DNA from: Thermoplasmata archaeon
Lineage (GTDB): Archaea; Thermoplasmatota; Thermoplasmata; Halarchaeoplasmatales; Halarchaeoplasmataceae
Reading direction: 5' to 3'
DNA length: 51,012 bases
NCBI GenBank assembly: GCA_003555395.1
Contig: PWHU01000077.1
Coordinates: forward strand, 1 to 51,012
The notes under the pieces: model-generated
Seen by the model: the letters and a program-made list of their open reading frames with translations, nothing else
Database searches by the model: none
Told to the model about the DNA's origin: nothing
In this document: positions 1 to 38,467 of the stretch, in pieces
Layout: each line of letters begins with the position of its first letter
Position numbering within the stretch: position 1 is the first letter of the stretch
Position numbers and translations under genes: made by a program

Positions 1-338
1 GCACCAGCGATACCGAACCCTCCTCGTTCTGCAGAGAGCCCCTCGAAGAGGAAAAGCGAAACGAGTCCTACGCTGAAAAGAACTACGGTCAAAAGTAAAA
101 ATACGGCACCGATCTTAAGATGAAATTTCTTATCACCGTTGGCCGCTGTGAAGGGATAGACACCCTTGAAGAGTTCCCAGTAATACTTTGTTTCCTTAAC
201 CCTTGGTTCATCCCATCGATCCCTGTAGCTTAACCCGCAGTAGGGACAGTAGACCTGTATCTTATCGTTGAATCTATTCTTTCCATCGGCGTAAAATTGT
301 GCTCTACACCTAGGACAGTGGGTTAACAGGTTTTTCAT
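1..338 (-). CDS. Zinc-ribbon membrane protein, truncated by the window edge
   Basis: Not in the ORF track because there is no stop in the window. My own translation from the reverse-strand ATG at 338 is stop-free to position 1: MKNLLTHCPRCRAQFYADGKNRFNDKIQVYCPYCGLSYRD...KIGAVFLLLTVVLFSVGLVSLFLF. It has a CPRC-x19-CPYC zinc ribbon followed by a hydrophobic helix. Confidence 0.5.
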   Translation of the reverse strand, partial: MKNLLTHCPRCRAQFYADGKNRFNDKIQVYCPYCGLSYRDRWDEPRVKETKYYWELFKGVYPFTAANGDKKFHLKIGAVFLLLTVVLFSVGLVSLFLFEGLSAERGGFGIAG

Positions 339-408: not shown

Positions 409-416
409 ATATTTAA
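409..416 (+). promoter_or_regulatory. TATA-like box (ATATTTAA) about 30 nt upstream of the TTG start at 442
   Basis: A/T-rich octamer at the spacing expected for an archaeal TATA box with a leaderless or near-leaderless mRNA. There is no Shine-Dalgarno motif between it and the start. Confidence 0.35.
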
Positions 417-441
417 GAGATGCATAGATTAAGTCTACACC

Positions 442-2109
442 TTGTCACCTAACATAGATCTACCGGAAGGACTAAAAGCACAGGAGATAGAGGGCTTCGG
501 AAAACTTCAACCCCTGCTGGAGAAGTTGAAACGCTATTCGTTCCATGGTTATATCAAGGTCAGAATCAGGGACGAATATGAAGGCTATCTCGTTTTGAAA
601 GACGGGCTACCCAGGAACGCCCTGTTCTATGATCTGAAGGCGGATAAACTCAAAAAAGGTCTCACCGCACTTCAGTATATACATACTCTGGATACGAACC
701 CCAATCTCTACATATCTGTCCATACTGATATAGATATAGATGAATTGATGAACAAGATAGGGGGCCGGCTCCCGGTCCGTGGCGAGAAAGGTGAAGCTGG
801 CGGTAAATCCTCTGCCCCACGTAAACCGAGCGAGATGTTCAGGCAGCAGACTCTTGAGTGGTCGGAAGGCGCCTTGAGTGACCGACCTAAAGAGATCAGA
901 GAAGATTTTCCGGAGTTGTATTCCTTCAAAAATTTTATCGTCGGTCCTAACAACCGGTTCGCCTATACCGCTGCGCTGTCCGTGGCGGAAAATCCGGACA
1001 AGAGCTACAATCCCCTTTTCATAACCAGCAAGACCGGCTTGGGTAAGACCCATCTGTTGAAGGCTATCGGGCGAGCCCAACTCATAGACGATAGAGATAG
1101 AAATGTGAAATATGTGGTCACCTCCAAACTTTTGAACGAGATAGAAGAGGCCAAAAAGAAAGAGGATATGTCCGATCTCAGAAAAAAGTATCTCGAGGTC
1201 GATACTCTGCTTTTGGACGATATCCAATCTTTAGCCAATAAGGAACATCTCCAAGAAGAGTTTTTCTACATCCTATCGGAATTACAGAGCAGCGGCGGCC
1301 TTATAATATTATCCGCGGATAGATCTCCCGAAGAGATTCCGGAGGTGGAGGATCACCTTATCTCACGTTTCAAGTCCGGTTTGGTAGTTGATATCCTAGC
1401 TCCGAGTTACCAGACCCGAAAGAACATAATCGAATACAAAGCGAAGAAGGAAAGACATGACATACCTGGAGACGTGGTCAACTACATGGCAAAAAAGATC
1501 AGGAAGAACGTCAGCTCCATAGAAGGGGCCTTGAACAGGGTCACCGCCTATTCGACCCTTATGGATAAGCCCATAACTCTAGAGACCATGGAACAAGTTT
1601 TATCGAGATATATAGATGAGGAAGTCGATACCGAGGAGAGACTCAGACCTCAGTTCAAACCCGGCAGGAGTTACATCGTAGAGGAAGAGACCACACCCTC
1701 CGAAGGTTTGGGTCTCATCGACGAACTTCCTCCGGGGAAGCAGAAATTCGTGCTTTCCAGGATGAACCCCGATCAGATAAAGGACGAGTACCAGATCGAG
1801 AATGCGGAGATCGCTTGGTTGACAGATAGAAAGAGTGATGAATATACGACCATACCTCCCAACCTAGAAAGATTGAGCTGGACCCTTGAAGAACAGATAA
1901 AAAACATGGACGTAGTCTTCATCGACGGCCTTGAATATTTGATAAGCAACACCAGCTTCGATGCCAGCATCCAGTTCATAAGACACATAGTTGATGTGGT
2001 ATCCGAAACTGACACCGTCTTCGTAGTGGTGGTCAACCCGAGAGCCATGGAAAGCAAGGAGATCAGTATACTCGAAAGAGAGATGGACGTAATATCTTAT
2101 GTGAGCTAA
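442..2109 (+). CDS. DnaA-type AAA+ ATPase fused to a C-terminal DUF835 domain; N-terminal ~100 aa small domain (possibly DUF4388/PATAN-like)
   Basis: The 555-aa ORF starts at TTG. Residues ~160-375 align by eye to DnaA domain III: FIVGPNNRFAYTAALSVAENP, NPLFITSKTGLGKTHLLKAIG (Walker A), DTLLLDDIQ (Walker B), LQEEFFYILSEL, IILSADRSP (sensor 1), ISRFKSGL, NVSSIEGALNRV. Residues ~405-552 match the DUF835 pattern (GRSYIVEE..., FVLSRMNPDQI, IAWLTD, VFIDGLEYLI, FIRHIVDVV, ILEREMDVI). No DnaA domain IV is present. Confidence 0.75.
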   Translation: MSPNIDLPEGLKAQEIEGFGKLQPLLEKLKRYSFHGYIKVRIRDEYEGYLVLKDGLPRNALFYDLKADKLKKGLTALQYIHTLDTNPNLYISVHTDIDIDELMNKIGGRLPVRGEKGEAGGKSSAPRKPSEMFRQQTLEWSEGALSDRPKEIREDFPELYSFKNFIVGPNNRFAYTAALSVAENPDKSYNPLFITSKTGLGKTHLLKAIGRAQLIDDRDRNVKYVVTSKLLNEIEEAKKKEDMSDLRKKYLEVDTLLLDDIQSLANKEHLQEEFFYILSELQSSGGLIILSADRSPEEIPEVEDHLISRFKSGLVVDILAPSYQTRKNIIEYKAKKERHDIPGDVVNYMAKKIRKNVSSIEGALNRVTAYSTLMDKPITLETMEQVLSRYIDEEVDTEERLRPQFKPGRSYIVEEETTPSEGLGLIDELPPGKQKFVLSRMNPDQIKDEYQIENAEIAWLTDRKSDEYTTIPPNLERLSWTLEEQIKNMDVVFIDGLEYLISNTSFDASIQFIRHIVDVVSETDTVFVVVVNPRAMESKEISILEREMDVISYVS

Positions 2110-2112
2110 AAC

Positions 2113-2673
2113 TCAGTCTTCTTCGTTTTTTGAGTTCCCTGTTAGATGATCTAAAAGAGGTCTGCTCGTCGATGTTATCTTAGGATGAGGATGTGGATCA
2201 TGTACCGTGACGTTCTCGCATCTTTTGCATACAAGTGCTACGCCGAACTCTCCCTCGTGACTGCATGAGGGACATTCGAAAGTTTTTGGTAAAAGGGTCG
2301 AATCCAATATCTTGATCTCCAGCTGTGCCAACCTGCTGCCCAGCAAACCGATCTGAGTGGCCAATTTAGCTTCCATACTACTATCTTTATTTCCGAGTTC
2401 AGAATACTTTTGATAGAGATCTTCGGCCCTTTCTGCGGCACAAAAACCGTTCTTGACCAGTTCCTTAGGTGAATCGCCTTCCTCGAACATGTCGAAGGCT
2501 TTAGACTCTAGTGCTAACTTTTTCAACTTTTTTGAAATATCAGGGTTATCCACTATGGCATCTCTAATATTCTCAAGAGGTTCTTCGAGTTCCTCCGCTA
2601 TCTCCTTCAGCGATAACCCTTTATCGGATAGTTCGAGAAGCTTTTCATCCATCTCGTTTAGATCGGCGCTCAT
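2113..2673 (-). CDS. Putative HTH plus zinc-ribbon protein
   Basis: 186-aa ORF with an ATG start. It has an N-terminal helix-turn-helix-like segment (LSDKGLSLKEIAEELEEPLENIRDAI), a central helical region and a C-terminal CPSC-x14-CKRC zinc ribbon. Its stop lies 3 nt from the stop of the convergent 442..2109 gene. Confidence 0.55.
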   Translation of the reverse strand: MSADLNEMDEKLLELSDKGLSLKEIAEELEEPLENIRDAIVDNPDISKKLKKLALESKAFDMFEEGDSPKELVKNGFCAAERAEDLYQKYSELGNKDSSMEAKLATQIGLLGSRLAQLEIKILDSTLLPKTFECPSCSHEGEFGVALVCKRCENVTVHDPHPHPKITSTSRPLLDHLTGNSKNEED

Positions 2674-2733: not shown

Positions 2734-3558
2734 TCATATCAGATCAAGACTGATATCCTGCGATCTTATCCGGTGAGTCAACGCGCCTACCGAGATCACG
2801 TCTACTCCTGCTGCCGCTACTTTATCTATATTCTCAAGGTTTACGTTTCCCGAGGCCTCCAAAACCACTTCGCCGTCCACCGTCTCTACCACTTCTTCCA
2901 TCTCGTCTATGGACATATTGTCCAGCATGATTATGTCCGCTCCTGTACAGAGTGCTTCCTCCGCCTCTTCGACGGTTCCCACTTCCACCTCGATCTTCAC
3001 CATATGGCTTTTTCTAACTCTCTTGACGGCTTCTTCTATACCCTCTGCTGACCGTATATGATTGTCCTTTATCAGCACTGCGTCGTAAAGTCCCATCCTG
3101 TGATTCCTACCTCCGCCGACCCTTACGGCGTACTTTTCGAGCATGCGGAGGTTGGGCGTAGTCTTCCGCGTATCTACAACCTTTACGTCGTGATCTTCTA
3201 CCTTTTTTACGTATTTATCGGTGCGTGTAGCTATGCCGGATAACCTCTGAAGGAAGTTCAAAGCGATCCTTTCCCCCTTCAGTATACTTCTAGTTCTGCC
3301 GGAGACCACTGCGATCTTTTCTCTAGGTCTTAAAGTTTCGCCGTCCTTTTTCAAACTCTCAAAATCTATATCGCTATCGATCTCTTTGAACACTTGTTCA
3401 GCTACGGGCAGGCCCGCGAGTATACCTTCTTCTTTGGCCTTGATCTCGCCGGACGACCGTTCATTTTTTGATATGACGCTGTCTGTGGTTATATCTCCGG
3501 TCCAAATATCCTCTTCTATGGCTTCAGCCACTATCTTTCTGATCCTGTGCTCGTTCAT
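2734..3558 (-). CDS. nadC: Nicotinate-nucleotide pyrophosphorylase (quinolinate phosphoribosyltransferase)
   Basis: The 274-aa protein has typical NadC stretches (ERIALNFLQRLSGIAT, VVDTRKTTPNLR, KYAVRVGGGRNHR, DAVLIKDNH, IMLDNM). Its start overlaps the nadB stop (ATGA). Confidence 0.9.
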   Translation of the reverse strand: MNEHRIRKIVAEAIEEDIWTGDITTDSVISKNERSSGEIKAKEEGILAGLPVAEQVFKEIDSDIDFESLKKDGETLRPREKIAVVSGRTRSILKGERIALNFLQRLSGIATRTDKYVKKVEDHDVKVVDTRKTTPNLRMLEKYAVRVGGGRNHRMGLYDAVLIKDNHIRSAEGIEEAVKRVRKSHMVKIEVEVGTVEEAEEALCTGADIIMLDNMSIDEMEEVVETVDGEVVLEASGNVNLENIDKVAAAGVDVISVGALTHRIRSQDISLDLI

Positions 3559-5138
3559 TTCACATACCCCTGGGGATTCTCTTTATCGAATAATACGTGT
3601 TTGTTATCCCATCCATGCTTTTTATCAGGATGATCGATCCTGAAATGCGCTCCTCTGCTTTCTTCTCTTATCAAGGCGGACCTACATATCAATATTCCGA
3701 CTCTCAGCATATTTTTGATCTCGTGACCTTCAGTGTTAAAAAAGGATATATTTTTGATTTTCTTCATTTCCTTTTCTAACCAACCGATGACTTCTATAAG
3801 TTCATCTTTTTCTCTTATTATACCGGCCTTATCCATCATAGAACTCCTTAACTCTTGCTTCAACCCCCACAAACATGGATCATCGCATATATCCTGTTCA
3901 GATCCCGTATGATCAACCTTCACAGAAGAACGGAGTCCATCTTTTCTGATACTCTCGAATATCCTGTGTCCGAAAACTAATCCTTCTAGTAATGAATTAC
4001 TCGCTAATCGGTTGGCGCCGTGGACGCCGGTGCAGGCGACTTCTCCACAAGCGAAAAGGTTCCGTATAGAAGTACGGCCGTCAAGATCGGTCTTTACTCC
4101 CCCTATCATGTAATGGGCTGAAGGTACTACCGGGATAGTATCAACTGTCATATCGATACCTTTTTTCTTTAAAGTAGTGTAAATGTTGGGGAATCTTCCC
4201 TTGATATACTTTTTGTCTAGATGAGTAACGTCAAGCCATACGTTTTCTTTATCGAACTTCTTTCCTTCGGCGATTATAGCTCTCGCCACAACGTCTCGTG
4301 GAGCTAGTTCAGATTCTTCATGATATTTTTCCATGAACCTCTCTCCCTCCTCATTTCTGAGTAAGCCACCTTCACCTCTAACGGTTTCAGAGATCAAGAA
4401 AGATACTCCTTCTGGATCGTATAGAGCCGTAGGATGGAACTGTATGAATTCCATATCGACTATCTCCGCTCCACACCTGTAGGCGGCTGCTACTCCGTCT
4501 CCCGTGGTAACATCCGGGTTCGTGGTATTTTTATATGCCATCCCACATCCCCCACTTGCTAAGATTCCGTAAGGTGCTCGGTAAAAAACGATGTTATCTT
4601 TATTGTGATCGCAGCAGAGTGCCCCAGCAAATCTGTCGTCTTCTACATATATATCTATGAGGAACGTCCTCTCGTTCAACTCAACATTTTCACGGTTCGT
4701 AGCGGCCGCGGTCAAAGATTCTCGGATCTCCTCTCCCGTGGCGTCGCCTCTAGCGTGCAGTACTCTCCTTCTGCTGTGTGCCCCTTCCCTCGCCAGGTCC
4801 AGTTCTCCTTCTATAAAATCGAACTGCGTACCTAACTCGATGAGTTCATTGACCCTATCAGGGCCTTCTTTGACCAGGACTCTCACGGCATCCTCGTTAC
4901 AGAAATCGGCTCCGGCCTGTAAGGTATCTTTCATATGTAGCTCCCAGGAATCCCCTTTATCCAGAACCGCGGCGATGCCGCCTTGGGCGTACTGGGTGCT
5001 GCTTTCCTCCACACTGTTTTTGGTGATTATTTGAACCTCACCCAGTCTGCCAAGCTTCAAAGCTGTATAAAGGCCGGCGATCCCACTCCCCACTACAAGA
5101 AAATCGGTTTCAATTTTATCATCTATATGTGCGGTCAT
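3555..5138 (-). CDS. nadB: L-aspartate oxidase
   Basis: FAD-binding N-terminus (DFLVVGSGIAGL), then QGGIAAV, HPTAL, GGLLRNEEGERFM and a C-terminal RGAHFR motif. The ATG at 5138 overlaps the nadA stop; a GTG at 5141 is an alternative start. Confidence 0.9.
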   Translation of the reverse strand: MTAHIDDKIETDFLVVGSGIAGLYTALKLGRLGEVQIITKNSVEESSTQYAQGGIAAVLDKGDSWELHMKDTLQAGADFCNEDAVRVLVKEGPDRVNELIELGTQFDFIEGELDLAREGAHSRRRVLHARGDATGEEIRESLTAAATNRENVELNERTFLIDIYVEDDRFAGALCCDHNKDNIVFYRAPYGILASGGCGMAYKNTTNPDVTTGDGVAAAYRCGAEIVDMEFIQFHPTALYDPEGVSFLISETVRGEGGLLRNEEGERFMEKYHEESELAPRDVVARAIIAEGKKFDKENVWLDVTHLDKKYIKGRFPNIYTTLKKKGIDMTVDTIPVVPSAHYMIGGVKTDLDGRTSIRNLFACGEVACTGVHGANRLASNSLLEGLVFGHRIFESIRKDGLRSSVKVDHTGSEQDICDDPCLWGLKQELRSSMMDKAGIIREKDELIEVIGWLEKEMKKIKNISFFNTEGHEIKNMLRVGILICRSALIREESRGAHFRIDHPDKKHGWDNKHVLFDKENPQGYVK

Positions 5139-6049
5139 CACTCACTTCCTCTTCCTATCCGGATCATCCGCTCCAGTGGTTTCTTCGCCCTGCTTGCCAA
5201 TCCCTCGTCAACGGTGATCACGGGTTCCAATCGCTCTAGAGATCTAACTACCTTCTCTAACGTTATCTTCTTCATGTTCTGACATGTCGGATCTCCCGGG
5301 AAGTGATATTCTTTTTCTGGCACCTCTTTTTTCAGCCGGTATCCCATCTCCTTCTCGGTGCCTATTATCATGTGTTTAGCACTAGTTGTTTTAGCCCTCT
5401 CCAATATGCCGGCGGTGGATTCTACGAAGTCCGCTATATCCACTATCTCGGGCTTACACTCGGGATGGACAACGACTTCGGCTTCAGGGTATTCGTTCAT
5501 CAACTTTTCCACGTCCTCTTTCATGATGTCATCGTGGGTGGCACAGTACCCTTCCCATAAGTCGACTTCCTTATCCTGGACGAATCTCTTTACGTAGTGT
5601 CCCAAATTTCTGTCCGGTACGAACAACACCTTGGGATTGTCTAAACTTTCAACGACCTTTACCGCGTTGGAAGAGGTACAGCAGACGTCTGATTCCGCCT
5701 TGGTCTCTATATTGGTGTTGACGTAAGATACCACAGCGGCGTCAGGATTTTTTTCCTTGTAATCTCTAAGCTCGTCCAAATCGACCATCTGAGCCATCGG
5801 ACATCCGGCCTGTGATTCCGGATGGATGATCCTTTTGTCCGTATTGAGGACGGCGGCGGATTCGACCATGAAGTCCACTCCGCAGAAAACCACGTTTGAA
5901 ACATCTAATTCAGTAACTTTTCTAGCCAAACCGAATGAATCTCCTACGAATTCCGCCGCATCCTGTATCTCGCCTACTTGGTAGTTGTGCGCAACGATGA
6001 CCGCATCGTTCTCTTCCTTCAATTCCTCGATCCTGTCGCTCAGAGACAT
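5138..6049 (-). CDS. nadA: Quinolinate synthase
   Basis: 303 aa with NadA hallmarks (VIVAHNYQ, FVGDSFGLA, FCGVDFM, CPMA, VSYVNT, VCCTSSNA, VHPEC). It is the first gene of a nadA-nadB-nadC operon on the minus strand. Confidence 0.9.
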   Translation of the reverse strand: MSLSDRIEELKEENDAVIVAHNYQVGEIQDAAEFVGDSFGLARKVTELDVSNVVFCGVDFMVESAAVLNTDKRIIHPESQAGCPMAQMVDLDELRDYKEKNPDAAVVSYVNTNIETKAESDVCCTSSNAVKVVESLDNPKVLFVPDRNLGHYVKRFVQDKEVDLWEGYCATHDDIMKEDVEKLMNEYPEAEVVVHPECKPEIVDIADFVESTAGILERAKTTSAKHMIIGTEKEMGYRLKKEVPEKEYHFPGDPTCQNMKKITLEKVVRSLERLEPVITVDEGLASRAKKPLERMIRIGRGSE

Positions 6050-6107: not shown

Positions 6108-6203
6108 TGCTCCCGGGGGGATTCGAACCCCCGTAATCGGCTATCCCTGGCCGTTGTCGGCCTCGAAAGGCCGAGATGATTGGCCGGACTACACCACAGG
6201 AGC
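6108..6203 (-). tRNA. tRNA-Glu (anticodon UUC) with a 21-nt intron; CCA not encoded
   Basis: Reverse complement: GCTCCTGTGGTGTAGTCCGGCCAATCATCTCGGCCTTTCG[AGGCCGACAACGGCCAGGGAT]AGCCGATTACGGGGGTTCGAATCCCCCCGGGAGCA. The acceptor stem is GCTCCTG/CGGGAGC and the T-arm is GGGGG-TTCGAAT-CCCCC. After removing the bracketed segment the anticodon stem is TCGGC/GCCGA with loop CTTTCGA. The mature length is 75 nt. Confidence 0.85.
6143..6163 (-). other. tRNA-Glu intron at the canonical 37/38 position (boundary ambiguous by 1 nt)
   Basis: The 21-nt insert contains the hairpin GGCCG-ACAA-CGGCC and can also pair with the 5' anticodon stem (TCGGCC/GGCCGA). This is compatible with a bulge-helix-bulge splice substrate. 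Confidence 0.7.
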
Positions 6204-16508: not shown

Positions 16509-18338
16509 TCAGATAACTATGCTGACTCTTTTTCCTCTGTTAGTGTCCTCTAAAAGACGTCTTCCAACTCTTGTGCCCTTTCTCACCTTTATAGTGCCGT
16601 CCTCACCGACTGTCAAGGTCGAAAGGTATTCGTCATCTGAGTAAATATCAACGCTTTTTTTAGCGTATTCTACTCCCACATCTATGACTATCTTTTCTTT
16701 CTCTATGAATATATCTACGTCCATCATCTCGGATTCCGTTCTTTCACGAATTTTACCACCGCCTAATGGTTGCACGTCGATGCTCATCCCCAGCCCCTCT
16801 TCTATCCTGGAGATGTTCCTGCCGTTCTTACCAAGGAGCGAAGCTATCTCGCTCTCGGGTACATAGACCGTGATCCTGTCTGATGAATCGACTTCTACTT
16901 CGACACGCCCTCTAACATGTCTGCTCAATTCCCTCTCTATTTCTCTCTCCGCCATGTTCCATACGGGTTTTTCTAAACTGCCTTCGGTTTCCTCTACAGG
17001 CATCACCACCACCTGCTCGCCGTAGGAGTAAACTTCGAACTCGACTATCCCTGTCTCGAAATCTTTCACCTCGATAACCGGTCTAGCTAGATCTTCTTCC
17101 ATCATGCCCGCCGGCACCTTGACGGTATAGCTTACATCGTAAACCTTGTTTATTTGACCGTCTTCAACATAGATCACCGTATCGACCACCTGCGGGACCA
17201 TACCTAGTTCTACTCTACCTATCAGTCTTTGGAGGGCATCTATAGCTCGACTCGCGTGTGTCACCCCGATCATGCCGACGCCGGCTAATCTCATGTCTGC
17301 GAAGACCTTAAAATCCGGTGTCTTTCTCACCTCGTCGTAGATGGTGTAATCCGGTCTTACCAGGAGTAAAATGTCACCGGTATCCTCCATCTTCCCTGCT
17401 AAGCTGGTATACTGGGTGATCTCGTCTCCTACCTGTAAGTCTCTAGGGTCTTCCATGGTCTTCACCGTATAATCCAAGTCCTTTAGATAGACGGCTATCG
17501 CTTGAGCCAACGTACTTTTTCCGGCACCGGGAGAACCGGATAAAAGGACACCCCGCTGCCTTTCAGCCAACCGTTCCTTCAACTCATCGGACAATCTATA
17601 ATCGTCCAATTCTACCTTAGCTACGGGTTTCACCGCCGTGATCTCGAAACCGTCGGAAAAAGGAGGTCTAGCTATCACTATACGGATATCCTCGAGCTGG
17701 ACAACCGTAGCACCGCCTTTATCGACTTCTATGAAACCTTCAGAAGACCTTTTAGCGCTTTCTATTATGTCATGAGCTATTTCGTTCAGTTCTTTTTCAT
17801 CCAAGACGCGTTCCTCTATGATACGTATACTAACGTTTCCAGGAGTACCCACCTTCGCCTTAGGCTTGTCTCCTTTGCGTAGATGTACCGACATGACGTT
17901 CTCGTCGAAGTAGTCTCGTATGCTCTTCCCTTTTTTTTCTTCTCTACTTTCTGGTTCGAGATAGTCCACATCTAAACCTTTAGCCCTGCCCACTTCCGAT
18001 TGAACGATATCGCTGGTGAGCAGAGTCGCATCTTCTTCGAGAGCCATGGAACGTATCATCGAATCTATCTCGCCGCTTGAACTAGCTTCCATCTCCTCGA
18101 CAGTAGGTCTTTCGCCGGCGAAAGAAAGCTTTATCTTTCCCTCCTCGTGGTACTCCCTCAATTTTTGTATCTCCTCGATACCGCTCAACCCTGTTTCTTG
18201 GCCCCTATTGGCCTGGCCTTCCAACTCGAGTAGAACTGCTTCAGGGATGATTATATGCGCTTCCTCGTAAAGTCCCTCTTCTATCCTGTCAGTGACTCGG
18301 CCGTCGATTATAACGCTAGTATCGGGTACTATCTTCAT
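16509..18338 (-). CDS. PIN-domain / PilT-like ATPase / KH-domain protein (archaeal PINA-type ATPase, COG1855)
   Basis: N-terminal PIN domain ([14 protein letters not shown]...), Walker [17 protein letters not shown], and a C-terminal KH-like [20 protein letters not shown]. Confidence 0.85.
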
Positions 18339-20693: not shown

Positions 20694-22226
20694 TCAGCAG
20701 ACCTTCTCCACTTTTGGATGCTCCTCCAAGATCATGCCTTCCACCTTTAAGGGTTTAAGGTGATTGGCGGCTTTCACCGCCTTCTTCAACTCGCTCTTAC
20801 TTTCCGAATAGATCGTGTAAAGTACTTCGTCCCTTTCTACCTTATCTCCCTTTTTCTTATCCAAGAACAGGCCGGCCCCTTTACAGTGAGGCCCTCCTGC
20901 CGCCCTCACGATATTTATTATCTGATGGTTGTTTATACTGTCAACATAGCCCTCTTCCACTGCCCGGATGTCTTCAGAATATTCTCCTATCTCGACATCA
21001 TCGGACGTAACCTCAGGATCTCCACCCTGCTTATCTATTATCTGTTTCATCTTATCCAGGGCTTCGCCGCTGTTCAGCAATCGTTTAGCCTCTTCTTTAC
21101 CGTCACTTATACCGCCCTGTTCAAGTACCATGCCCGCAAGAGTGGTAGATTTTTCTATCAAACTTGAAGGCACATCCTTTCCTTCAAGGGCCATCAACGC
21201 TTCTTTAGCCTCTATGGCCGGTCCGACAGCTCTACCAACGGGCTGGCCTCCGTAACTCAAGGCACATCTGGTTTCTATGCCTATATCCTCGCCGAGAGAG
21301 ACAAAATCTCTTGCGTATTTTCTTCCTTTCTCTATGGTCTCCACTTTGGTGTTCTCTCCCACAGGGATGTCCATCACCAGATATTCGGCTCCGGCGGCTT
21401 TCTTTTTTGATAGAACGGAAGCTAGTACCTGAGCGTAAGGATCTATCCTCAAGGGATATTCGGCTCTTATGATCATGTCGTCACTGGGCGCTAGATTTAC
21501 CGCACCACCCCATGCTATAGTACCTCCGACATCTTCCGCTATCTCCTTTATCTCGTTCACGCTCAGACACACGTTGGCCAATGTCTCGAATATATCTGCG
21601 GTTCCTCCGGCGCTGGAGATAGCTCTTGAGCTGGTTTTTGGGATCATGAGGCCTGCAGCTGCCACTATAGGGACTATGAGCAGCGTTATCTTGTTTCCGG
21701 GAACACCGCCTATACTGTGATGATCGAAGACAGGATGTTCATCAAATTCGATCCTGTCGCCTGTATCGATCATGGCATGGATTAGATCTTTTATCTCCCT
21801 GTTGCTCATACCGTTGGCGTAGACTCCGGATACGTAGGCTGAAAGCTCTATATCCGAGAGACGTCCTTCTACTATATCTTGGATTATCTCGTTTATTCCA
21901 TGGGTGGACAATTCTTCACCTTCCAATTTTTCTTTTATATGCTCGATAGATTCGGGTCTTCTCGCCTGGACTACTTTCAATTCGTCCCCTTGGGTAACCT
22001 TGAGGTCTTGGATAACTTTTTCTACTAGTCCTATCTCGCCCTTATCTATCAAACTCTCTGATATCTCAACCACAGCCGTGGTGTTTCTCCCCTCTTTGTT
22101 CACGCTCACTCTACTCTGGCTCCGCAGTCCCATCCTTTCTGCATCATCTCTGTGTAGTATCACTAAATGATCTCCTGATTCCAGGTCTATCTTTTTGCCT
22201 TTCAATTTCATCGGTTTCACATCCAT
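20694..22226 (-). CDS. deoA: AMP phosphorylase (thymidine phosphorylase family, archaeal type)
   Basis: About 505 aa, with the extra N-terminal domain typical of AMPpase, plus HSIGGVPGNK, SSRAISSAGGTAD and PVGRAVGPAIEAKEAL. ATG 22211 (MKLKGKKIDL) is an equally plausible start. Confidence 0.85.
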   Translation of the reverse strand: MDVKPMKLKGKKIDLESGDHLVILHRDDAERMGLRSQSRVSVNKEGRNTTAVVEISESLIDKGEIGLVEKVIQDLKVTQGDELKVVQARRPESIEHIKEKLEGEELSTHGINEIIQDIVEGRLSDIELSAYVSGVYANGMSNREIKDLIHAMIDTGDRIEFDEHPVFDHHSIGGVPGNKITLLIVPIVAAAGLMIPKTSSRAISSAGGTADIFETLANVCLSVNEIKEIAEDVGGTIAWGGAVNLAPSDDMIIRAEYPLRIDPYAQVLASVLSKKKAAGAEYLVMDIPVGENTKVETIEKGRKYARDFVSLGEDIGIETRCALSYGGQPVGRAVGPAIEAKEALMALEGKDVPSSLIEKSTTLAGMVLEQGGISDGKEEAKRLLNSGEALDKMKQIIDKQGGDPEVTSDDVEIGEYSEDIRAVEEGYVDSINNHQIINIVRAAGGPHCKGAGLFLDKKKGDKVERDEVLYTIYSESKSELKKAVKAANHLKPLKVEGMILEEHPKVEKVC

Positions 22227-23446
22227 TTATCAAGGGCCTTTTTCAATTCTAGATGCTCTTTTGCATATTCTTTCAGTTCTATACCTTTGACGGCCGCGTC
22301 TACGGCCTGTGAAAGAGCTTTCGCTCCTGCTCTCACACCGTCAGGATGCCCCGAGACACCGCCGCCGGCTTGGATCTGTACGTCATTTCCGCTGTTTTCC
22401 ATCAGTTCGGGTATCAATCCTGGATGAAGCCCTCCGCTCGCCACGGGCATCATCCTTTTCAAACCGTGCATCTCGCCTAAAAGGGCTTCTTTGGACATCA
22501 ATTCTTCAGATATGTCGGCGTGCATCTTTCCAGTTCCGTAAGTACCGGTATGCAGCGCATCTCCTCCAGCCATCCTTACCAGTTTTGCTATCACGGGCAT
22601 GGATATACCGTGATCTGGATTTTTCGTGATAGCGCCGTGCATTGCCCTATGAACGTGGATAGGAACTTTGATCGATGGGTCTTCAGCAAGAGCTTGCAGG
22701 CCGGAAAAACCGACTGTCAAAACGTCCACCATCAACTGCCTAGCGCCGTTCTCCAAAGCTAGGTCGCCGGCTTCTAAAATTTTATGAACGCTGGTGCTTA
22801 TGTTGTGAGCGTGTATCATCTTGTGGCCTTCTTCCTCCAACAGATCCAACTTTTCACTCACATAAGACACTCTTTCTTCTAAAGGACAAAAATCCTGATC
22901 TACCAAAGTTTCGTCGTCCTTTGAGTTGGTAAGTCCGCCTTTTCCCGCCTCGTATACGTAATCGGAAAACTCTTCAGGAGGAAGACCTATCTTTGGCTTC
23001 ACTATAGTACCTACTAGAGGTTTTTCGGGTCTCCCCAATATCCCACGAAGACCTTCTATTCCCTGCTGAGGTCCAGGATACTTATTTACAATTTTAGACG
23101 GTAACTCTATATCTACCAAACGAACTCCGTCTAAAGAGTCAAGACCGAAAAGATTTCCTGCGATTATACTCAGTATTTGAGGGATCTCTCCGATCTCACC
23201 TGAAAAATCTATAACAGGGTAACCAATCCTAGTACGATCACCTTCCGCCTCCACTACTTTGGCGCCGTACCGCTCGAATATTTCATCCGACAAAGTTGTG
23301 GGATGTGTCCAAGTTCCGGTGGACTCCTCTTCAGCTATCCTTTTTCCCGCGGTCTCTATGTCAAGGTCACTTTTCACTGTATATTGGCATATCAGGTATC
23401 CTTCTGGGTCTAATTCTTCGTCCAATGCTAGATAGTCTATACTCAT
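22217..23446 (-). CDS. rbcL: Ribulose-1,5-bisphosphate carboxylase, form III large subunit
   Basis: All catalytic positions are recognisable: VKPKIGL (K175/K177), SKDDE (K201/D203/E204), HVHRAMH (H294/R295/H298), HTGTYGTGK (H327/K334), SGG and GGGVSGHP. At 409 aa it is at the short end for form III. Confidence 0.9.
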   Translation of the reverse strand: MSIDYLALDEELDPEGYLICQYTVKSDLDIETAGKRIAEEESTGTWTHPTTLSDEIFERYGAKVVEAEGDRTRIGYPVIDFSGEIGEIPQILSIIAGNLFGLDSLDGVRLVDIELPSKIVNKYPGPQQGIEGLRGILGRPEKPLVGTIVKPKIGLPPEEFSDYVYEAGKGGLTNSKDDETLVDQDFCPLEERVSYVSEKLDLLEEEGHKMIHAHNISTSVHKILEAGDLALENGARQLMVDVLTVGFSGLQALAEDPSIKVPIHVHRAMHGAITKNPDHGISMPVIAKLVRMAGGDALHTGTYGTGKMHADISEELMSKEALLGEMHGLKRMMPVASGGLHPGLIPELMENSGNDVQIQAGGGVSGHPDGVRAGAKALSQAVDAAVKGIELKEYAKEHLELKKALDKWM

Positions 23447-24366
23447 CTTATCATCTCCTCTATAATGCGATAAGCACCTTCGGGTGAGATCACGCCTTTC
23501 TCGGTGATTATCGAGTCTATATACTCTGATGGGGTGGCGTCGAAAACTGGATTGCTTATGTTAACACCCGGAAATTTTTTAGGGTCTACGATCTCCGATG
23601 GGTCCCGTTCCTCTATCGGGACAAGTTCGCCGAAGGTGCTTTTTCTCGAAAACTTGTAGGTTTCGGCGCAGACCGTTAGAGGGACTCTTGCCTCGTCGGC
23701 ACAAAGGGCTACCTGAGAAGTACCTATCTTGTTTATGACAGCGCCGTTAGATGCGATGGTGTCGGCACCTACGTACACCTTGTCGACCTTCTTGATCTTC
23801 GCCCTCACCGCCGAATCCACTATCAGCGTAACCGGTATACCTTCCTTTGAAAGCTCTTCGACCGTTATGTAACCCTGTTTTTTAGGCCGCGATTCAGTGG
23901 CTATAACGCTTATGTTCTTTCCATTGTTCCACGCGTACTTTATCGCCGCCAAGGCCATCGAGCTGTTGCAGTGCGTCAGGACCATGTCGTCATCGCTGAT
24001 CCTTCTACCGCCGTACTCGGCTATCTTGCTTTTTGCTCTGATAGAGTTATCGATGAAATCCGAGTAGTTATCACTTATCATTTCTTTCAATTGTTCTATA
24101 TCATCAGCTTTTCTCACTCCGTGCATCACGTATCTTAAACCGTTCTCTAAGGATACGGCGGTGGGCCTTGTAGAAAGCAATCTTACCTTGCATGTTTCAA
24201 GCTCTTCCAAAAGATCCGTCATGTCTTCATTTTCAAAATCTTCCCCGATTTTTTTCAGTGCGTAGGCCCCGGCTCTTGCTATCTCAGCGGCACCTCTTAT
24301 CTCCATAGATTCGATCTTCCTGGCGATCTCTTCTACCTCTAATCCCTCTATATCGTCTAAACCCAT
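23443..24366 (-). CDS. Ribose-1,5-bisphosphate isomerase (eIF-2B alpha/beta/delta-like)
   Basis: MEIRGAAEIARA, RPTAVSL, VLTHCNS, ATESRPKKQG, VGADTIASNGAVINKIGT and NPVFDATP. ATG 24366 fits the family N-terminus; the track's TTG at 24432 adds 22 atypical residues. Overlaps the rbcL start by 4 nt. Confidence 0.85.
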   Translation of the reverse strand: MGLDDIEGLEVEEIARKIESMEIRGAAEIARAGAYALKKIGEDFENEDMTDLLEELETCKVRLLSTRPTAVSLENGLRYVMHGVRKADDIEQLKEMISDNYSDFIDNSIRAKSKIAEYGGRRISDDDMVLTHCNSSMALAAIKYAWNNGKNISVIATESRPKKQGYITVEELSKEGIPVTLIVDSAVRAKIKKVDKVYVGADTIASNGAVINKIGTSQVALCADEARVPLTVCAETYKFSRKSTFGELVPIEERDPSEIVDPKKFPGVNISNPVFDATPSEYIDSIITEKGVISPEGAYRIIEEMIR

Positions 24367-24439
24367 GGGATGGAATATGCTTTTATGGGTAAAAAATCTT
24401 TGTGTGTTAAGGCTGAAAAAAAAGTCGATCAAACGATTT

Positions 24440-25081
24440 TTACAAATCCAGCCTTTCTAGTAAAAGTGAAAGGTCCTTCTTCTCTATTATCATGTCAGCC
24501 GCCTTTCGTACTTCGTTATCGCTGGGATTGAACGCTATGCCTACGCCGGCTTTTTTCAACATGGGAGCATCGATGTGACTGTTACCAACGGCGACACATC
24601 TTTTCTTTTTGACTCCTATATCTTTCACCAGTCTTTCAAAGATATCCCCCTTCTCTTTTAACTTCACTTCTACTATACCCTCACCCGTCAATTCACCTCC
24701 TTTCTCCTCGACATCGTTAGCGAGTATCCTATCGAAGTATCTACTTCCGATCATCTCGGCCAAAGGTTTCAAACCTCCGCTTATCACCGCAGTTGTGTAA
24801 TTTTCTCCAAGATAGGGTACACATTCATCGAACCCGTTCATCACAGGAGCTTCGCTCAATATGTTTACTACTTCCTCCTTTGAAATATCAGGGTTCATAG
24901 ATCTCCATAGACCAATATCCCTTCTTATGAATTCTAGATCGTCTATCTCATCGTTCATGTAGGCTCTCAAAGAATCTTCATTGTCCACGCCGAACCTGTC
25001 GTGGATCCACTTCCATGAACTGTGTGTGTCGACTAGAACGCCGTCCATGTCGAAAACGATCATCTCTTTTTTTGAAGTCAT
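24440..25081 (-). CDS. HAD-superfamily phosphatase (phosphoserine phosphatase-like)
   Basis: Motif I is VFDMDGVLVD, motif II is VISGG, and motifs III/IV are KGD...AVGNSHIDAPMLKKAGVGIAFNP. The start overlaps the upstream gene's stop (ATGA). Confidence 0.8.
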   Translation of the reverse strand: MTSKKEMIVFDMDGVLVDTHSSWKWIHDRFGVDNEDSLRAYMNDEIDDLEFIRRDIGLWRSMNPDISKEEVVNILSEAPVMNGFDECVPYLGENYTTAVISGGLKPLAEMIGSRYFDRILANDVEEKGGELTGEGIVEVKLKEKGDIFERLVKDIGVKKKRCVAVGNSHIDAPMLKKAGVGIAFNPSDNEVRKAADMIIEKKDLSLLLERLDL

Positions 25082-27297
25082 AAGTCAGCCCTTATATCCT
25101 CCATATTCTTTTTGTACTCTTTAAAATATTCTATGCTTTCCTTTAGGTCCCCGCTCTTTCGAGCGTTGTTGGTCTCCTTTAAAAGTTTTACCGGCCTCGA
25201 TATATCCGCCCCCTGGATCTTAGCTTTTTTAAGCTCGTCTCTAGCCTCTTTTATATCATCTTTAAGAGCGTTCGCCAGCTGCCGGAAAGCTTTATTTTCT
25301 ATCTTTTCGATCAGTCTTTGTAATCCACCTATTTCTCCCTTCTCGCATTTACTTCTCGCTTTTTCAATGAGACCCCGTGCTTCAGGAAAATCGAGCTCGA
25401 GTTTTTCAGCCATACTGATGGTGTCTTCGATCCTAGAAAGTTCTTCTTTGAAGGGCTCTAAATCCTCTTCATCTCGCTCACTTTCTTTTTCTCCCCCTCT
25501 CTTCTTTTTTTCGATCAACTCCCTTATCTTTTTGTAATCTCCATTATCTCTATATTTTTCGATCCTTTCCTTCAGCTCTTGCATACCGTCGATCGAACTC
25601 TCTTCCATCTGGTTTAACTCGTCCTCGATCTTTTTATCAAGCTTTCTTTGGAAGAACTCTTCACAATCTCTCAAAGATTGTATCGCATCCTCATAATCGT
25701 TCTGTTTAGTTTTTTCCACAGCCTCTTTGATGAGTTCTTTTCCCCCTTCGATATCGATACCGAAATTCTTTGATCTCTTCAGAAGTTCTTTAGTCCTAGG
25801 TATTTTCTGCTGTATCTCTTTGAAGAGGTTTTTTCCACCTTTCTTCTCCACCGTTTCTTCTTTTTTCTTTTTTTCGACTTTTTCTTCCTTTTCCCCCAAT
25901 TTCTTTTTGAGATCATCTATGGTACCTTCGACTTTGTCTTCCCCGCCGGAGATATCTCCCCTTTTGAACCTTTCTTTTGCCTCCTCTAGGTCGTCCGAAT
26001 ACTCTTCATATTCCCTCTCTTTCTCCTTGAGCCGTTCTATATGATCTTCCGCTTCTACGATCTTCTTAGATATATCATGTACGGTTTCAGCTGTCCTATT
26101 AGCGTTCATGATGCTGTGAAAACTTTCGATCAGATCGCCGACTTCCATCTCTATAGATGAATTGTCTACGTACTCTTCTATATCTCCTGTGTCTACATCT
26201 ACATTGAGATCGTCTATCTCAGAAAGCTTTTCTTTTACGGATTTTTCTTTCTTTTCTATATATCTCTTCAATTCTTTTCCTTTCTTCATCCCCATGTCTT
26301 CGGCCACTTCTTTTATGTCTTGTTCGACTTCATCCGCCTTTTTTGATGCCACCCTGTATTCCCCAATCTCACATCCTCTCAATATGTCTTCTATCCATTC
26401 TTCGAGATTTGAAGTATCGCTTTTTTGAGAGATCCACTCGATGTAATTTCTACATCTTTCTACTCTTTCACGTATGTCTAATGCAAAGCCTACCCTATCC
26501 TCTGCCCTTTCGACCAGACCGTTAGCTTTTTCTTCGTCTTCATCCTCTAATGCATTTTTTACTTTATTCAAATCTGATTTGATCTCATCCAATACTATAT
26601 TGGAACGCCTCAACCTTCCTATTTTCTCTTCAAGTGAATGGACTCTTTCCTGAAGGTCCGTTTCGCTACTTTCCATCTGCTGCTCGAGGATAGAATCTAA
26701 CTCTTCGAAATCACCGTGTATATCATCCAGTTCCTCTGCCACGCTGCTGATATCTTTTTCAAGTTCTTCTTTCTTTTCATCCACCACTTCTTCTTCGATC
26801 TCTTCATCTTCTTCTTCCTCAAATATCACGCCGCAGCTTGGACATTCGGATGCATCTTCTGAAACTTCACTTTCACATATGGGACATTCAAAGGTGATGA
26901 TCCTCTCTATGTTCTCTTCCGTATCTTCCTCAGTATCTTCGGGTTCCTTTTTCTCCTCTTCTAAATCATCATCAGACAGGCCAAGGTCTTTGAGGTCTTC
27001 TATAAGTTCGTTTTGTATCTCATCATCGTCCTCTTCTTCTTCCTCCTCCTGTATCTCTTCCTGGCCTAGTTCGTCCTCGATCGAATCCAAATCACTAGGT
27101 CCATCTATTTGATCGATACCTTCATCGTCTAAAACCATATCCATAACTTTTTCGATCGATTCTTGAGATATGTCATCCTCTAGATCTATATCTTGATCAA
27201 ACAGACTAAGATCGGCTCCGCAGATGGGGCACTTTTCTTGGTCGTGCGGTATATCAGAATCGCAAACGGGACAAATGGTCTCAGAATCTTCTTCCAA
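25078..27297 (-). CDS. Hyperacidic coiled-coil protein with two N-terminal zinc ribbons
   Basis: 739 aa with a TTG start. The zinc ribbons are CPVC-x11-CPIC and CPIC-x11-CPSC. The rest is E/D/K-rich with heptad-like periodicity and matches no family I recognise. Confidence 0.7.
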   Translation of the reverse strand: MEEDSETICPVCDSDIPHDQEKCPICGADLSLFDQDIDLEDDISQESIEKVMDMVLDDEGIDQIDGPSDLDSIEDELGQEEIQEEEEEEDDDEIQNELIEDLKDLGLSDDDLEEEKKEPEDTEEDTEENIERIITFECPICESEVSEDASECPSCGVIFEEEEDEEIEEEVVDEKKEELEKDISSVAEELDDIHGDFEELDSILEQQMESSETDLQERVHSLEEKIGRLRRSNIVLDEIKSDLNKVKNALEDEDEEKANGLVERAEDRVGFALDIRERVERCRNYIEWISQKSDTSNLEEWIEDILRGCEIGEYRVASKKADEVEQDIKEVAEDMGMKKGKELKRYIEKKEKSVKEKLSEIDDLNVDVDTGDIEEYVDNSSIEMEVGDLIESFHSIMNANRTAETVHDISKKIVEAEDHIERLKEKEREYEEYSDDLEEAKERFKRGDISGGEDKVEGTIDDLKKKLGEKEEKVEKKKKEETVEKKGGKNLFKEIQQKIPRTKELLKRSKNFGIDIEGGKELIKEAVEKTKQNDYEDAIQSLRDCEEFFQRKLDKKIEDELNQMEESSIDGMQELKERIEKYRDNGDYKKIRELIEKKKRGGEKESERDEEDLEPFKEELSRIEDTISMAEKLELDFPEARGLIEKARSKCEKGEIGGLQRLIEKIENKAFRQLANALKDDIKEARDELKKAKIQGADISRPVKLLKETNNARKSGDLKESIEYFKEYKKNMEDIRADL

Positions 27298-28807: not shown

Positions 28808-28966
28808 GCCGAGGTAGCTAAGTCTGGGCTAAGGCGCCGGCCTTGAGAGCCGCCCAAAGGAAAAAAGTCTGGAAAGGCCTTTTCCTTGCATCGGGAAGAG
28901 ATTCCCGGTGTGTCAAGCAAGCCGGTGGCGCGCTGCGCCTCAGGAGTTCGAATCTCCTCCTCGGCG
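28808..28966 (+). tRNA. tRNA-Ser (anticodon UGA) with a 72-nt intron
   Basis: The acceptor stem is GCCGAGG/CCTCGGC with discriminator G. The T-arm is AGGAG-TTCGAAT-CTCCT and the long variable arm is GGCGC-GCT-GCGCC. The anticodon stem CCGGC/GCCGG forms only after removing 28848..28919, giving loop CTTGAGA. The mature length is 87 nt. A T-run (CTTTTT) follows. Confidence 0.8.
28848..28919 (+). other. tRNA-Ser intron at the canonical 37/38 position
   Basis: 72 nt: AGCCGCCCAAAGGAAAAAAGTCTGGAAAGGCCTTTTCCTTGCATCGGGAAGAGATTCCCGGTGTGTCAAGCA. It has two internal hairpins: CAAAGGAAAA...TTTTCCTTG, and CGGGAA-GAGA-TTCCCG. Confidence 0.7.
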
Positions 28967-37845: not shown

Positions 37846-37846
37846 T

Positions 37847-38467
37847 ATGGTCGCGCCGAGAGTTAGGAATATGTTAGGGATGAAATCCTCTATTTATATA
37901 TTATTTATGAAGCTTATCGGTGTAGCGGTCCTATTGTTTTTGGTTTTTTTTGGGAGGGGTGTCAGGGCCGCCATCCTTGTAACGGTGATGGTGATACCTT
38001 TATGGCTGCTCGTAGAGATGGTGAACGTAGATAGTGAATTCGCTGATCTATGGCAAAGTATCGAAGAGAAAGAAGAATTTTCCGAACTCCCTTTAAAGGA
38101 TGATATGATAAGTTTGAAGAAAGCTAGGAAAGGCCAGAGAGTGAAACAAGCACTCATCGAAGGCAGGATCAAAGAGCAGATTTACCGCCTGATCATGATC
38201 GATCAAAATCTTTCTGATGAGGAACTTCGGGATTTAAAAAAAGATGATGAAGCCCTGGTAGAAAGATTGGATAACGAACTACTTCGGGAATATATCCGGA
38301 AGGCCATAGATCTGAATGATCTGAAGTCGCCTGGTGAAGTAGACGGAACTACCATGTTCTCCGACGAAGGATCAAAAAGAACGGATCAAACTACCAAGGA
38401 GTTCGAAGAAAAGATAAGGGCCGCTATAGAGGAATTAGAAAAGGCTTACGGTATAGAGGAGACGTGA
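37847..38467 (+). CDS. Hypothetical membrane-anchored acidic helical protein
   Basis: 206 aa with two N-terminal TM helices and a charged helical C-terminus. The ATG is 1 nt after the upstream stop. No family recognised. Confidence 0.55.
   Translation: MVAPRVRNMLGMKSSIYILFMKLIGVAVLLFLVFFGRGVRAAILVTVMVIPLWLLVEMVNVDSEFADLWQSIEEKEEFSELPLKDDMISLKKARKGQRVKQALIEGRIKEQIYRLIMIDQNLSDEELRDLKKDDEALVERLDNELLREYIRKAIDLNDLKSPGEVDGTTMFSDEGSKRTDQTTKEFEEKIRAAIEELEKAYGIEET

Follow-up and report, generated by a model that had tools for sequence, protein, structure and literature searches.

In bacterial DnaA, domain I contacts DnaB (the DnaB/DiaA interaction) and domain IV reads DnaA boxes. Reviews treat DnaA as the bacterial initiator and Orc1/Cdc6 as the archaeal one. 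DUF835 has been described under the name "iKaiC" as an output domain of archaeal response regulators (Galperin 2018, PMC5847659), and ArlH has been reported to bind the motor ATPase ArlI as a hexamer (bioRxiv 10.1101/2021.03.19.436134). Here, we analyzed a stretch of 51,012 nucleotides from a Thermoplasmata archaeon (contig PWHU01000077.1 of GenBank assembly GCA_003555395.1; the whole stretch is called the window below). Near its left end lies a gene that encodes a DnaA-type AAA+ module placed between a family-specific N-terminal domain and a C-terminal DUF835 domain. An original prediction, made from the letters alone, had proposed such an archaeal fusion of a DnaA-type AAA+ module to DUF835, lacking a DNA-binding domain, and our results support it. 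The gene belongs to a chromosomally inherited, uncharacterized Thermoplasmatota family. We tentatively favor the possibility that its product is a nonreplicative, ATP-gated self-assembly switch in a KaiC-type complex.

The predicted open reading frame (ORF) is real. The family hidden Markov models (HMMs) for the N-terminal domain (N), the AAA+ module (AAA) and the C-terminal domain (C) each match it, and an identical copy of the protein is called on 6 to 7 public contigs, one of which (JAFDTV010000001.1, NCBI assembly GCA_019594385.1) overlaps the window. An antisense ORF within the gene (607 to 1227) was treated as spurious. The central module matched the Pfam family Bac_DnaA (PF00308) with an E value of 2.2e-54 over residues 159 to 317 (profile positions 4 to 162 of 162). 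With the NCBIfam models, DnaA (TIGR00362) scored 283.7 bits over profile positions 95 to 342 of 437, below its equivalog cutoff of 343.9 bits. The other scores were 90.5 bits for Hda (TIGR03420; the cutoff of 194.8 bits was not reached either), 54 bits for IstB and 21 bits for DnaC; Hda_lid gave a weak match, and no Orc1/Cdc6 family model in Pfam or NCBIfam matched at an E value of 1 or below. The best match among solved structures was domain III of Bacillus subtilis DnaA (8bv3; E value, 3.4e-58; 200 bits), gap-free over residues 159 to 387. The module therefore scores far higher to DnaA than to Hda or DnaC, with nothing from Orc1, and its earlier assignment to DnaA domain III holds. No match to domain IV (Bac_DnaA_C, PF08299) was found with Pfam, as had been anticipated, and none to domain I (DnaA_N, PF11638); the C terminus is DUF835 and the N terminus is the family-specific domain. 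A local domain-IV profile matched 83 bacterial DnaAs. All DnaA motifs quoted in the original prediction are present: FIVGPNNRFAYTAALSVAENP (residues 165 to 185), NPLFITSKTGLGKTHLL (190 to 206), LLLDDIQ (256 to 262), QEEFF (271 to 275), SADRSP (291 to 296), SRF (308 to 310) and IEGALNRV (360 to 367). Only the spacer between NPLFI and GLGKTHLL had to be corrected, from five residues to four.

Next to bacterial DnaA, the fusion has a complete AAA+ core and lid, every DnaA box and the same spacing as Escherichia coli DnaA. Bacterial DnaA, however, possesses domains I and IV, which the fusion lacks; its H/B motifs are not conserved in the family, its sensor-2 arginine is missing from the window copy, and the fusion module is set between two unrelated domains in an archaeal host. 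Hda, too, belongs to the DnaA family of AAA+ proteins and has no DNA-binding domain, and the weak Hda_lid match recalls it; however, Hda is a domain-III-only protein of about 230 amino acids, whereas the fusion comprises 555 amino acids with two extra domains and occurs in a host without the bacterial replisome. The AAA+ plus winged-helix arrangement of Orc1/Cdc6 is not matched by the fusion.

The state of the key residues was evaluated in an alignment of 77 family members (q numbers are residues of the window protein). The Walker A sequence GLGKT and the sensor-1 arginine were found in 77 of 77 members, the Walker B DD in 76, the arginine finger in 74 and the sensor-2 arginine (q358) in 71. 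In the window protein, the Walker A lysine is K202, Walker B is D259/D260, sensor 1 is D293/R294 and the arginine finger is R309. The distances from the Walker A lysine to the arginine finger (+107) and to sensor 2 (+156) are identical to those in E. coli DnaA, so that positions can be mapped onto that protein; its residue numbering was reconstructed and cross-checked against the gap-free B. subtilis alignment. R309 is the equivalent of the arginine finger R285, and q358 is presumably that of the sensor-2 arginine R334. Two departures had been overlooked earlier. At q358 the window copy carries a serine (NVSSIEG), and the position is S, N or T within the window's own subclade; q305, the equivalent of E. 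coli R281, is a histidine in the window copy.

The H/B motifs of DnaA (E. coli V211 and R245) bind single-stranded DNA (ssDNA) (PMC10325909). At q235, the V211 equivalent, the family shows I (19 members), E (14), S (12) and R (7), with E in the window; at q269, the R245 equivalent, it shows E (18), D (18), K (11) and R (10), with H in the window. The ssDNA-binding H/B positions of DnaA are thus not conserved in the family. The equivalent of E. coli K243 is basic (R or K) in 60 of the 77 members. Judged from these residues, the module appears to be built for binding ATP and for contacting the ATP of a neighboring protomer, while the DnaA-specific grip on ssDNA appears not to have been maintained.

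The C-terminal domain matched Pfam DUF835 (PF05763) with an E value of 2.7e-26 and 92.4 bits, versus a cutoff of 33.1 bits. The match spans residues 420 to 548 and profile positions 6 to 136 of 136, in agreement with the complete domain claimed before. An AlphaFold 2 (AF2) model of the domain (pLDDT, 89) was compared to solved structures with Foldseek. FlaH/ArlH (4yds) was the closest neighbor (E value, 1.8e-5; TMq, 0.60), followed by RecA and KaiC at about 3e-4, with E values for FlaH, RecA and KaiC ranging from 2e-5 to 7e-4; NCBIfam models of ArlH/FlaH also matched the fusion protein weakly. At the site of the P-loop, DUF835 carries the sequence SRMNP in place of GxxxxGK[TS], and R45, N47 and P48 are invariant across the family alignment. 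Walker A and the catalytic glutamates of an active KaiC/ArlH-type ATPase are absent. In the model, DUF835 is a RecA/KaiC-fold domain closest to ArlH/FlaH and devoid of a P-loop, and both the fold and the P-loop loss agree with the "iKaiC" label (PMC5847659). DUF835 thus resembles ArlH/FlaH and KaiC in predicted fold and differs from them in lacking the Walker A P-loop. The response regulators with a receiver (REC) domain and DUF835 described in the same study share this output domain; their input is a receiver, whereas here it is a DnaA-type AAA+ module.

The N-terminal domain had been likened to DUF4388/PATAN regulatory modules. We rejected this identity, as four approaches gave no support for it. 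First, Pfam searches with the N-terminal domains of 16 members returned no family match, even at E values of up to 10 for DUF4388 (PF14332), apart from one marginal DUF2226 match (E value, 0.048) in a single member. Second, an hhalign comparison with a 126-sequence DUF4388 alignment gave a probability of 0.5% and an E value of 0.11; as this template is of low diversity (Neff, 2.2), a very distant kinship may have escaped the comparison. Third, the AF2 model (pLDDT, 86.3) found no fold neighbor in the PDB, the best Foldseek E value being 0.13. Fourth, the only sequences that a profile search retrieved from 5.8 billion proteins were Thermoplasmata fragments of the domain's own family. Thus, among the Pfam searches called for by the original prediction, those for PF00308 and DUF835 gave matches and the one for DUF4388 gave none. 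A short hairpin motif, GYI...G.P..A, was probably behind the DUF4388/PATAN reading. The linker that follows is 33 to 237 amino acids long in the relatives, and its longer versions contain a helical WKxxGYxVxxLE region. When this helical linker was compared to the repeats of the partner proteins described below, only 3 proteins matched, and the similarity is weak.

A protein search yielded about 77 clusters (90% identity) combining PF00308 and PF05763, all from metagenome-assembled genomes (MAGs) of Thermoplasmatota. The database names of these proteins refer to domains only (for example, "DnaA ATPase domain-containing protein"). One 72%-identical member (P0003) carries the NCBI label "Candidatus Aenigmatarchaeota archaeon"; the other named members among the matches of this search and of the genome scan below are labeled Thermoplasmatota, Thermoplasmata, Methanomassiliicoccales or with a broader euryarchaeal name, and the P0003 label may stem from a misbinned or mislabeled MAG. 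When the C-terminal domain (an alignment of 7 sequences) was used as the query against one genome for each GTDB species, 362 encoding stretches were found, and the locus-level counts given here (L numbers) refer to the best 80 of these 362. All 80 derive from Thermoplasmata, Thermoplasmatota or Methanomassiliicoccales-type MAGs, some of them complete chromosomes. According to the family HMMs, 63 have the order N-AAA-C, 7 are AAA-C (mostly ending at a contig edge), 5 are N-C and 5 are C only; AAA+ and DUF835 are therefore fused in 70 of the 80. The five N-C paralogues (L060, L070, L073, L074 and L075) retain the N-terminal domain, the helical linker and DUF835, with a CxxC...CxxC zinc ribbon replacing the AAA+ module. 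The N-terminal domain and DUF835 thus form a scaffold whose middle part varies, with the DnaA module as one of at least two alternatives. In L083 and L087, AAA+ and DUF835 are split into adjacent genes. The DUF835 gene of L087 (3687 to 4505) encodes an N-terminal SAP domain (E value, 1.3e-10), and that of L083 (7647 to 8462), which is among the 3 proteins of the linker comparison, encodes a helical repeat matching the long-partner HMM (E value, 1.8e-8). At two loci (L052:1090-2847 and L057:6738-8462), a second DUF835 protein directly follows the fusion gene and is in turn followed by the long partner; the long N-terminal part of these proteins, which begins with a hydrophobic stretch resembling a signal peptide, looks secreted by eye.

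The gene adjoining the 3' end of the fusion gene is the second constant element of the locus. The original prediction had described a convergent helix-turn-helix (HTH)/zinc-ribbon gene on this side and a divergent zinc-ribbon membrane protein gene on the other, and both are as described. The downstream product has an HTH-like N-terminal extension, a conserved helical core, a C4 zinc ribbon (CPSCSHEGEFGVALVCKRC) and an acidic tail. The two stop codons are 3 nucleotides apart, and no terminator-like structure was found between them (2107 to 2115), implying that each transcript either overlaps the other or ends inside the other's coding region; the bacterial-type promoter and terminator scan that we used is uninformative for an archaeal host. 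Abutment of the two 3' ends recurs across the family, at -8 to +72 nucleotides. Partner counts were made over the 74 AAA+-containing loci. A long partner is convergent in 49 of them, and a short partner (186 to 199 amino acids, one ribbon) is convergent in 8, including the window, and co-directional in 4, where it overlaps the fusion stop codon by 4 to 29 nucleotides. A partner thus adjoins the fusion gene in about 61 of the 74 loci (57 convergent and 4 co-directional) and lies within 1 kb in about 9 to 10 more; 2 loci have none, and in 1 the contig ends too soon. The long partners (440 to 736 amino acids) carry one ribbon at the N terminus and a further, double one (CPxCG..CPxCGvxFaEEg..FxCPxC), together with an acidic linker and helical repeats. 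They are highly acidic with coiled-coil regions and contain no recognized DNA-binding domain. Zinc ribbons occur in all partners, whereas the HTH-like N terminus is restricted to the convergent short ones and is missing from the co-directional ones; the window partner gave weak HTH matches, and the L005 partner matched HTH_38 at 0.0019. The C4 ribbon of the "HTH/zinc-ribbon" description is thus general, and its HTH is a clade-specific extension.

All 5 AAA+-less N-Zn-C paralogues have the same convergent long partner, which shows that the partner goes with the N-terminal domain-DUF835 scaffold. Synteny between the window and its close relatives is broad, and the latter are hence uninformative alone on linkage; the distant members (35 to 45% identity) have different neighbors, yet still one gene abutting the 3' end. 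The upstream gene, whose product has a zinc ribbon and is hydrophobic and membrane-like in its C-terminal half, was found by jackhmmer in only 15 of the 80 loci, all of them within L010 to L030, the window's wider clade. Of the three-gene link that had been suggested, gene linkage is therefore strongly supported for the downstream partner but confined to one clade for the upstream gene: the locus is a robust two-gene unit with a clade-specific neighbor. Two start codons compete for the upstream gene (336 to 410). Public calls use an ATG at 410 (219 to 224 amino acids), only 31 nucleotides away from the fusion gene; an ATG at 338 would leave a gap of 103 nucleotides, similar to the 72 to 101 nucleotides in relatives. 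A candidate TATA-like element (Table 1) lies so close to the TTG that it would imply a leaderless or nearly leaderless fusion mRNA.

A third gene occurs in many lineages. At 19 loci and at L008, a highly conserved gene for an active single-domain KaiC-like ATPase (237 amino acids), which has the Walker A motif (GPPGSMKTS) and the catalytic glutamates (TLEE) that DUF835 lacks, is located directly past the long partner, about 1.6 to 2.6 kb downstream of the fusion gene (L008:9704-10417; also L043, L055 and L088). The fusion proteins of these loci are 37 to 94% identical to each other. A Roadblock/LC7 gene located 4.5 to 6 kb upstream was considered as a further partner and was rejected, as it was found at only 12 loci of the window's clade and reflects general synteny. 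The window itself contains an unlinked homologue of the long partner, 23 kb from the fusion gene and beside thiC. It has the N-terminal ribbon, double ribbon, acidic linker and helical repeats of the long form and matched Zn_ribbon_3, DZR and UPF0547 in Pfam.

Table 1. Positions of the fusion gene, its domains and associated features in the window
Feature	Position	Strand	Remarks
N-domain/DnaA-type AAA+/DUF835 fusion gene	442..2109	+	555 amino acids; TTG start; stop codon 2107-2109; from the ORF list
N-terminal domain (residues 1-112)	442..777	+	Family-specific; predicted topology b-a-b-b-b-b-a-b-a
Variable linker (residues 113-158)	778..915	+	From the family alignment
DnaA-type AAA+ module (residues 159-392)	916..1617	+	Pfam, TIGR00362, PDB 8bv3, 8btg and 2z4r
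Domain IIIa core	916..1392	+	
Lid IIIb	1393..1617	+	
DUF835 domain (residues 405-553)	1654..2100	+	Predicted RecA/KaiC fold; inactivated KaiC-like
Convergent partner gene, short form	2113..2673	-	186 amino acids; conserved beside the fusion gene in short and mid-length clades
Divergent upstream gene, N-terminal part	1..338	-	Runs off the window; 219 amino acids as called in L001
Unlinked long-form partner homologue	25078..27297	-	739 amino acids; long-partner HMM E value, 1.1e-54
Candidate archaeal TATA-like element ATATTTAAGA	409..418	+	About 28 nucleotides upstream of the TTG start; read from the sequence

To place the AAA+ module among its relatives, we searched 1.84 billion representatives exhaustively and obtained 18,347 matches. 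DnaAs of canonical length were 41 to 48% identical to the query, which equals the values for distant members of the archaeal family. Neighbor-joining (NJ) trees of 230 and 102 modules, built with no Hda, DnaC or Orc1 outgroups, had a star-like backbone and did not recover archaeal monophyly from AAA+ alone. They showed a tendency of the archaeal and the tandem/domain-IV-less modules to stand apart from domain-IV DnaA (F, 0.85 to 0.9, with no exact bootstrap split). The tandem proteins (P0060, P0079, P0114, P0120, P0122 and P0123) represent a large bacterial family, from Gemmatimonadota where named, and carry two DnaA-type AAA+ modules and no domain IV; TPR is among the additional domains that occur in such proteins. 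P0122 and P0123 contain MshEN, and a true DUF4388 was found in P0120 and, by local jackhmmer, also in P0122 and P0123. They lack domain IV, as does the archaeal family, were among the highest-ranking matches of the exhaustive search, and in the NJ trees show a tendency to cluster with the archaeal modules; unlike the archaeal family, they have two AAA+ modules and no DUF835 or family N-terminal domain and are bacterial, with a per-domain identity of 32 to 40%. Another domain-IV-less architecture combines a DnaA-type module with a zinc ribbon. P0145 (a cluster including ODS42663.1, Candidatus Altiarchaeales, on a 1.39-Mb contig) is annotated as "DnaA" and has Bac_DnaA, no domain IV and a C-terminal tail of 223 amino acids without a Pfam match. 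Finally, P0189 (MFA5771387.1; L090:8001-10421), from a Thermoplasmata MAG, fuses a DnaA-type AAA+ module without domain IV directly to PilB3_N-T2SSE. It lies in an operon with Pilin_N, DUF7289 and two T2SSF genes, adjoined by a response regulator gene, and is annotated by NCBI as "chromosomal replication initiator protein DnaA." P0189 and the fusion family share their archaeal class, and both have a domain-IV-less DnaA-type AAA+ module, which in P0189 has been recruited to a nonreplicative machine; in contrast to the family, it is an active secretion ATPase fusion in a pilus operon and has neither DUF835 nor the family N-terminal domain nor a zinc-ribbon partner. The literature searched contained no description of the DnaA+DUF835 architecture, of a role for it or of DnaA-type proteins from Thermoplasmata. 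The modules are known; the architecture, its phylum-wide distribution, the conserved partner and the KaiC-like link are undescribed.

From the domains identified and their folds, the conserved motifs and the linked genes, all shown above, we infer how oligomerization, docking and a signaling or assembly output may be connected. Upon ATP binding, the DnaA module would oligomerize head to tail via the arginine finger, in a DnaA-like manner. Oligomerization would cluster the DUF835 domains, themselves unable to bind ATP, and the clustered domains would offer a docking platform for the zinc-ribbon/coiled-coil partner. In many lineages, this platform would also dock the active single-domain KaiC-like ATPase of the same gene cluster, and ATP hydrolysis would reset the assembly. 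As the sensor-2 arginine has been lost in the window's subclade, hydrolysis is probably slowed there, and the protein of this subclade may act more as an ATP-binding latch. A nonreplicative role, as put forward in the original prediction, fits the loss of the H/B positions, the existence of AAA+-less paralogues, the KaiC/ArlH-like DUF835 and the KaiC-like gene at about 19 loci.

Several observations weigh against such a switch. The AAA+ modules are on average 45% identical within the family and 43% identical to the matches of canonical DnaA length. Conservation at the level of true DnaA, together with the basic K243 site, could mean that nucleic-acid binding has been retained, and accessories of a DNA-binding type occur, namely, the weak HTH of the window partner and the SAP domain of one split DUF835 gene. 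The short and long partners align only at the FECPxCG ribbon knuckle (hhalign, 73% over 25 columns). Most partners are convergent and hence not co-transcribed with the fusion gene. Moreover, of the 40 long-form loci with enough space for the KaiC-like gene, only 15 have it, and it is absent from the window.

An alternative that we consider improbable is that the fusion is a chromosome- or replication-linked factor acting beside Orc1/Cdc6, a "split DnaA" whose AAA+ filament would still engage nucleic acid and whose targeting to DNA would be provided in trans by the zinc-ribbon/HTH partner; it would then regulate or assist the initiation of replication or another DNA transaction. In its favor, the AAA+ module matches true DnaA in its degree of conservation, with boxes VII and VIII and the K243 site among the conserved features; the window partner has a weak HTH and a zinc ribbon, the L005 partner matches HTH_38, the split L087 gene encodes a SAP domain, and all partners have zinc ribbons; and in one locus the gene is near gyrA/gyrB. 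However, the fusion has neither domain I nor domain IV, and the family has not conserved the ssDNA motifs. Co-directional short partners have no HTH, the acidic, coiled-coil long partner has no recognized DNA-binding domain, and the AAA+-less paralogues retain the same partner. In addition, a scan of 20 window ORFs revealed neither an Orc1/Cdc6 gene nor an origin-like feature.

We regard as similarly unlikely that the fusion regulates type IV filaments, with DUF835 docking on a hexamer of the PilB/ArlI family and the DnaA-type module acting as a gate. FlaH/ArlH is the closest structural neighbor of DUF835, and the binding of ArlH to ArlI provides a precedent for such docking. A recruitment of this kind is also suggested by P0189 and by the bacterial domain-IV-less DnaA-type proteins with MshEN and DUF4388, which are domains of pilus ATPases and motility regulators. 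Yet in all 80 loci the 8 kb on either side are free of T2SSE genes, and RecA and KaiC match DUF835 almost as well as ArlH in Foldseek. The AAA+ module of P0189 is nearer to DnaA of canonical length (up to 62% identity) than to the family (up to 58%), so that P0189 may be an independent fusion.

Less probable again, taken as one joint proposal, is that a bacterial-type initiator ATPase acts on the chromosome of organisms with Orc1/Cdc6, where a DnaA-type filament, targeted by its zinc-ribbon (in places HTH or SAP) partners and controlled via KaiC-like domains, couples a KaiC-type signaling state to replication or another DNA transaction in Thermoplasmatota, and that domain-IV-less DnaA-type AAA+ modules are an unrecognized cross-domain class of portable ATP switches, whose members would be the fusion family described here, the PilB fusion of Thermoplasmata, the protein from Altiarchaeales and, from bacteria, the tandem/MshEN/DUF4388 proteins. 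That the fusion is an ATPase of antiphage defense or of mobile elements, or stems from bacterial contamination of an archaeal bin, is largely refuted and very improbable: defense islands often contain AAA+/STAND-like ATPases with zinc-ribbon partners, and PADLOC gave weak matches to mad8 (9e-4) and PtuA (6e-3), but these scores are marginal, the gene is single copy in stable synteny among housekeeping genes (nadABC, fibrillarin, thiC and an Na/Ca exchanger gene) across many MAGs and some complete chromosomes, IMG/VR holds no relative, and the architecture occurs among archaeal neighbors on about 70 independent archaeal contigs.

The host is archaeal, as had been assumed. The close relatives of the fusion protein are named Thermoplasmatota or Thermoplasmata, and the window carries fibrillarin and archaeosine-type TGT genes. 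Rfam detected two tRNA genes of intron-bearing size, at 6108 to 6203 (- strand; 96 nucleotides) and 28808 to 28966 (+ strand; 159 nucleotides); ARAGORN reported only the former, with its anticodon unassigned. Directly downstream of the partner, nadC-nadB-nadA (2734 to 6049, - strand) encode quinolinate phosphoribosyltransferase, L-aspartate oxidase and quinolinate synthase; this cluster is conserved in the closest relatives and replaced in others. A 609-amino-acid protein (16509 to 18338, - strand) has a PIN domain at its N terminus and, in addition, a secretion ATPase domain of the T2SSE type. At 22217 to 25081 (- strand), Pfam identified a RuBisCO large-subunit homologue (409 amino acids) beside an IF-2B-family protein and a HAD hydrolase, a pairing that we take to resemble archaeal AMP/nucleoside salvage genes. 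DUF4129 and DUF58 proteins with a 206-amino-acid ORF between them (36952 to 39741, + strand) and an 888-amino-acid surface-type protein with GLUG/InlB-B repeats (46559 to 49225) are unrelated to the fusion.

Archaea are taught to rely on Orc1/Cdc6 only, and the presence of the fusion family means that a well-conserved DnaA domain-III module is a stable and widespread chromosomal component across an archaeal phylum. If the switch mechanism proposed above is true, the ATP-dependent oligomerization switch of DnaA would be reusable outside replication, and a first functional handle would be available on DUF835, the N-terminal domain and the large zinc-ribbon/coiled-coil partner. If the family instead acts on DNA, archaeal replication would involve an initiator module of the bacterial type. 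In both cases, the family constitutes a concrete, testable two- to three-gene system, and it is found in MAGs labeled Methanomassiliicoccales, an order with cultured members.

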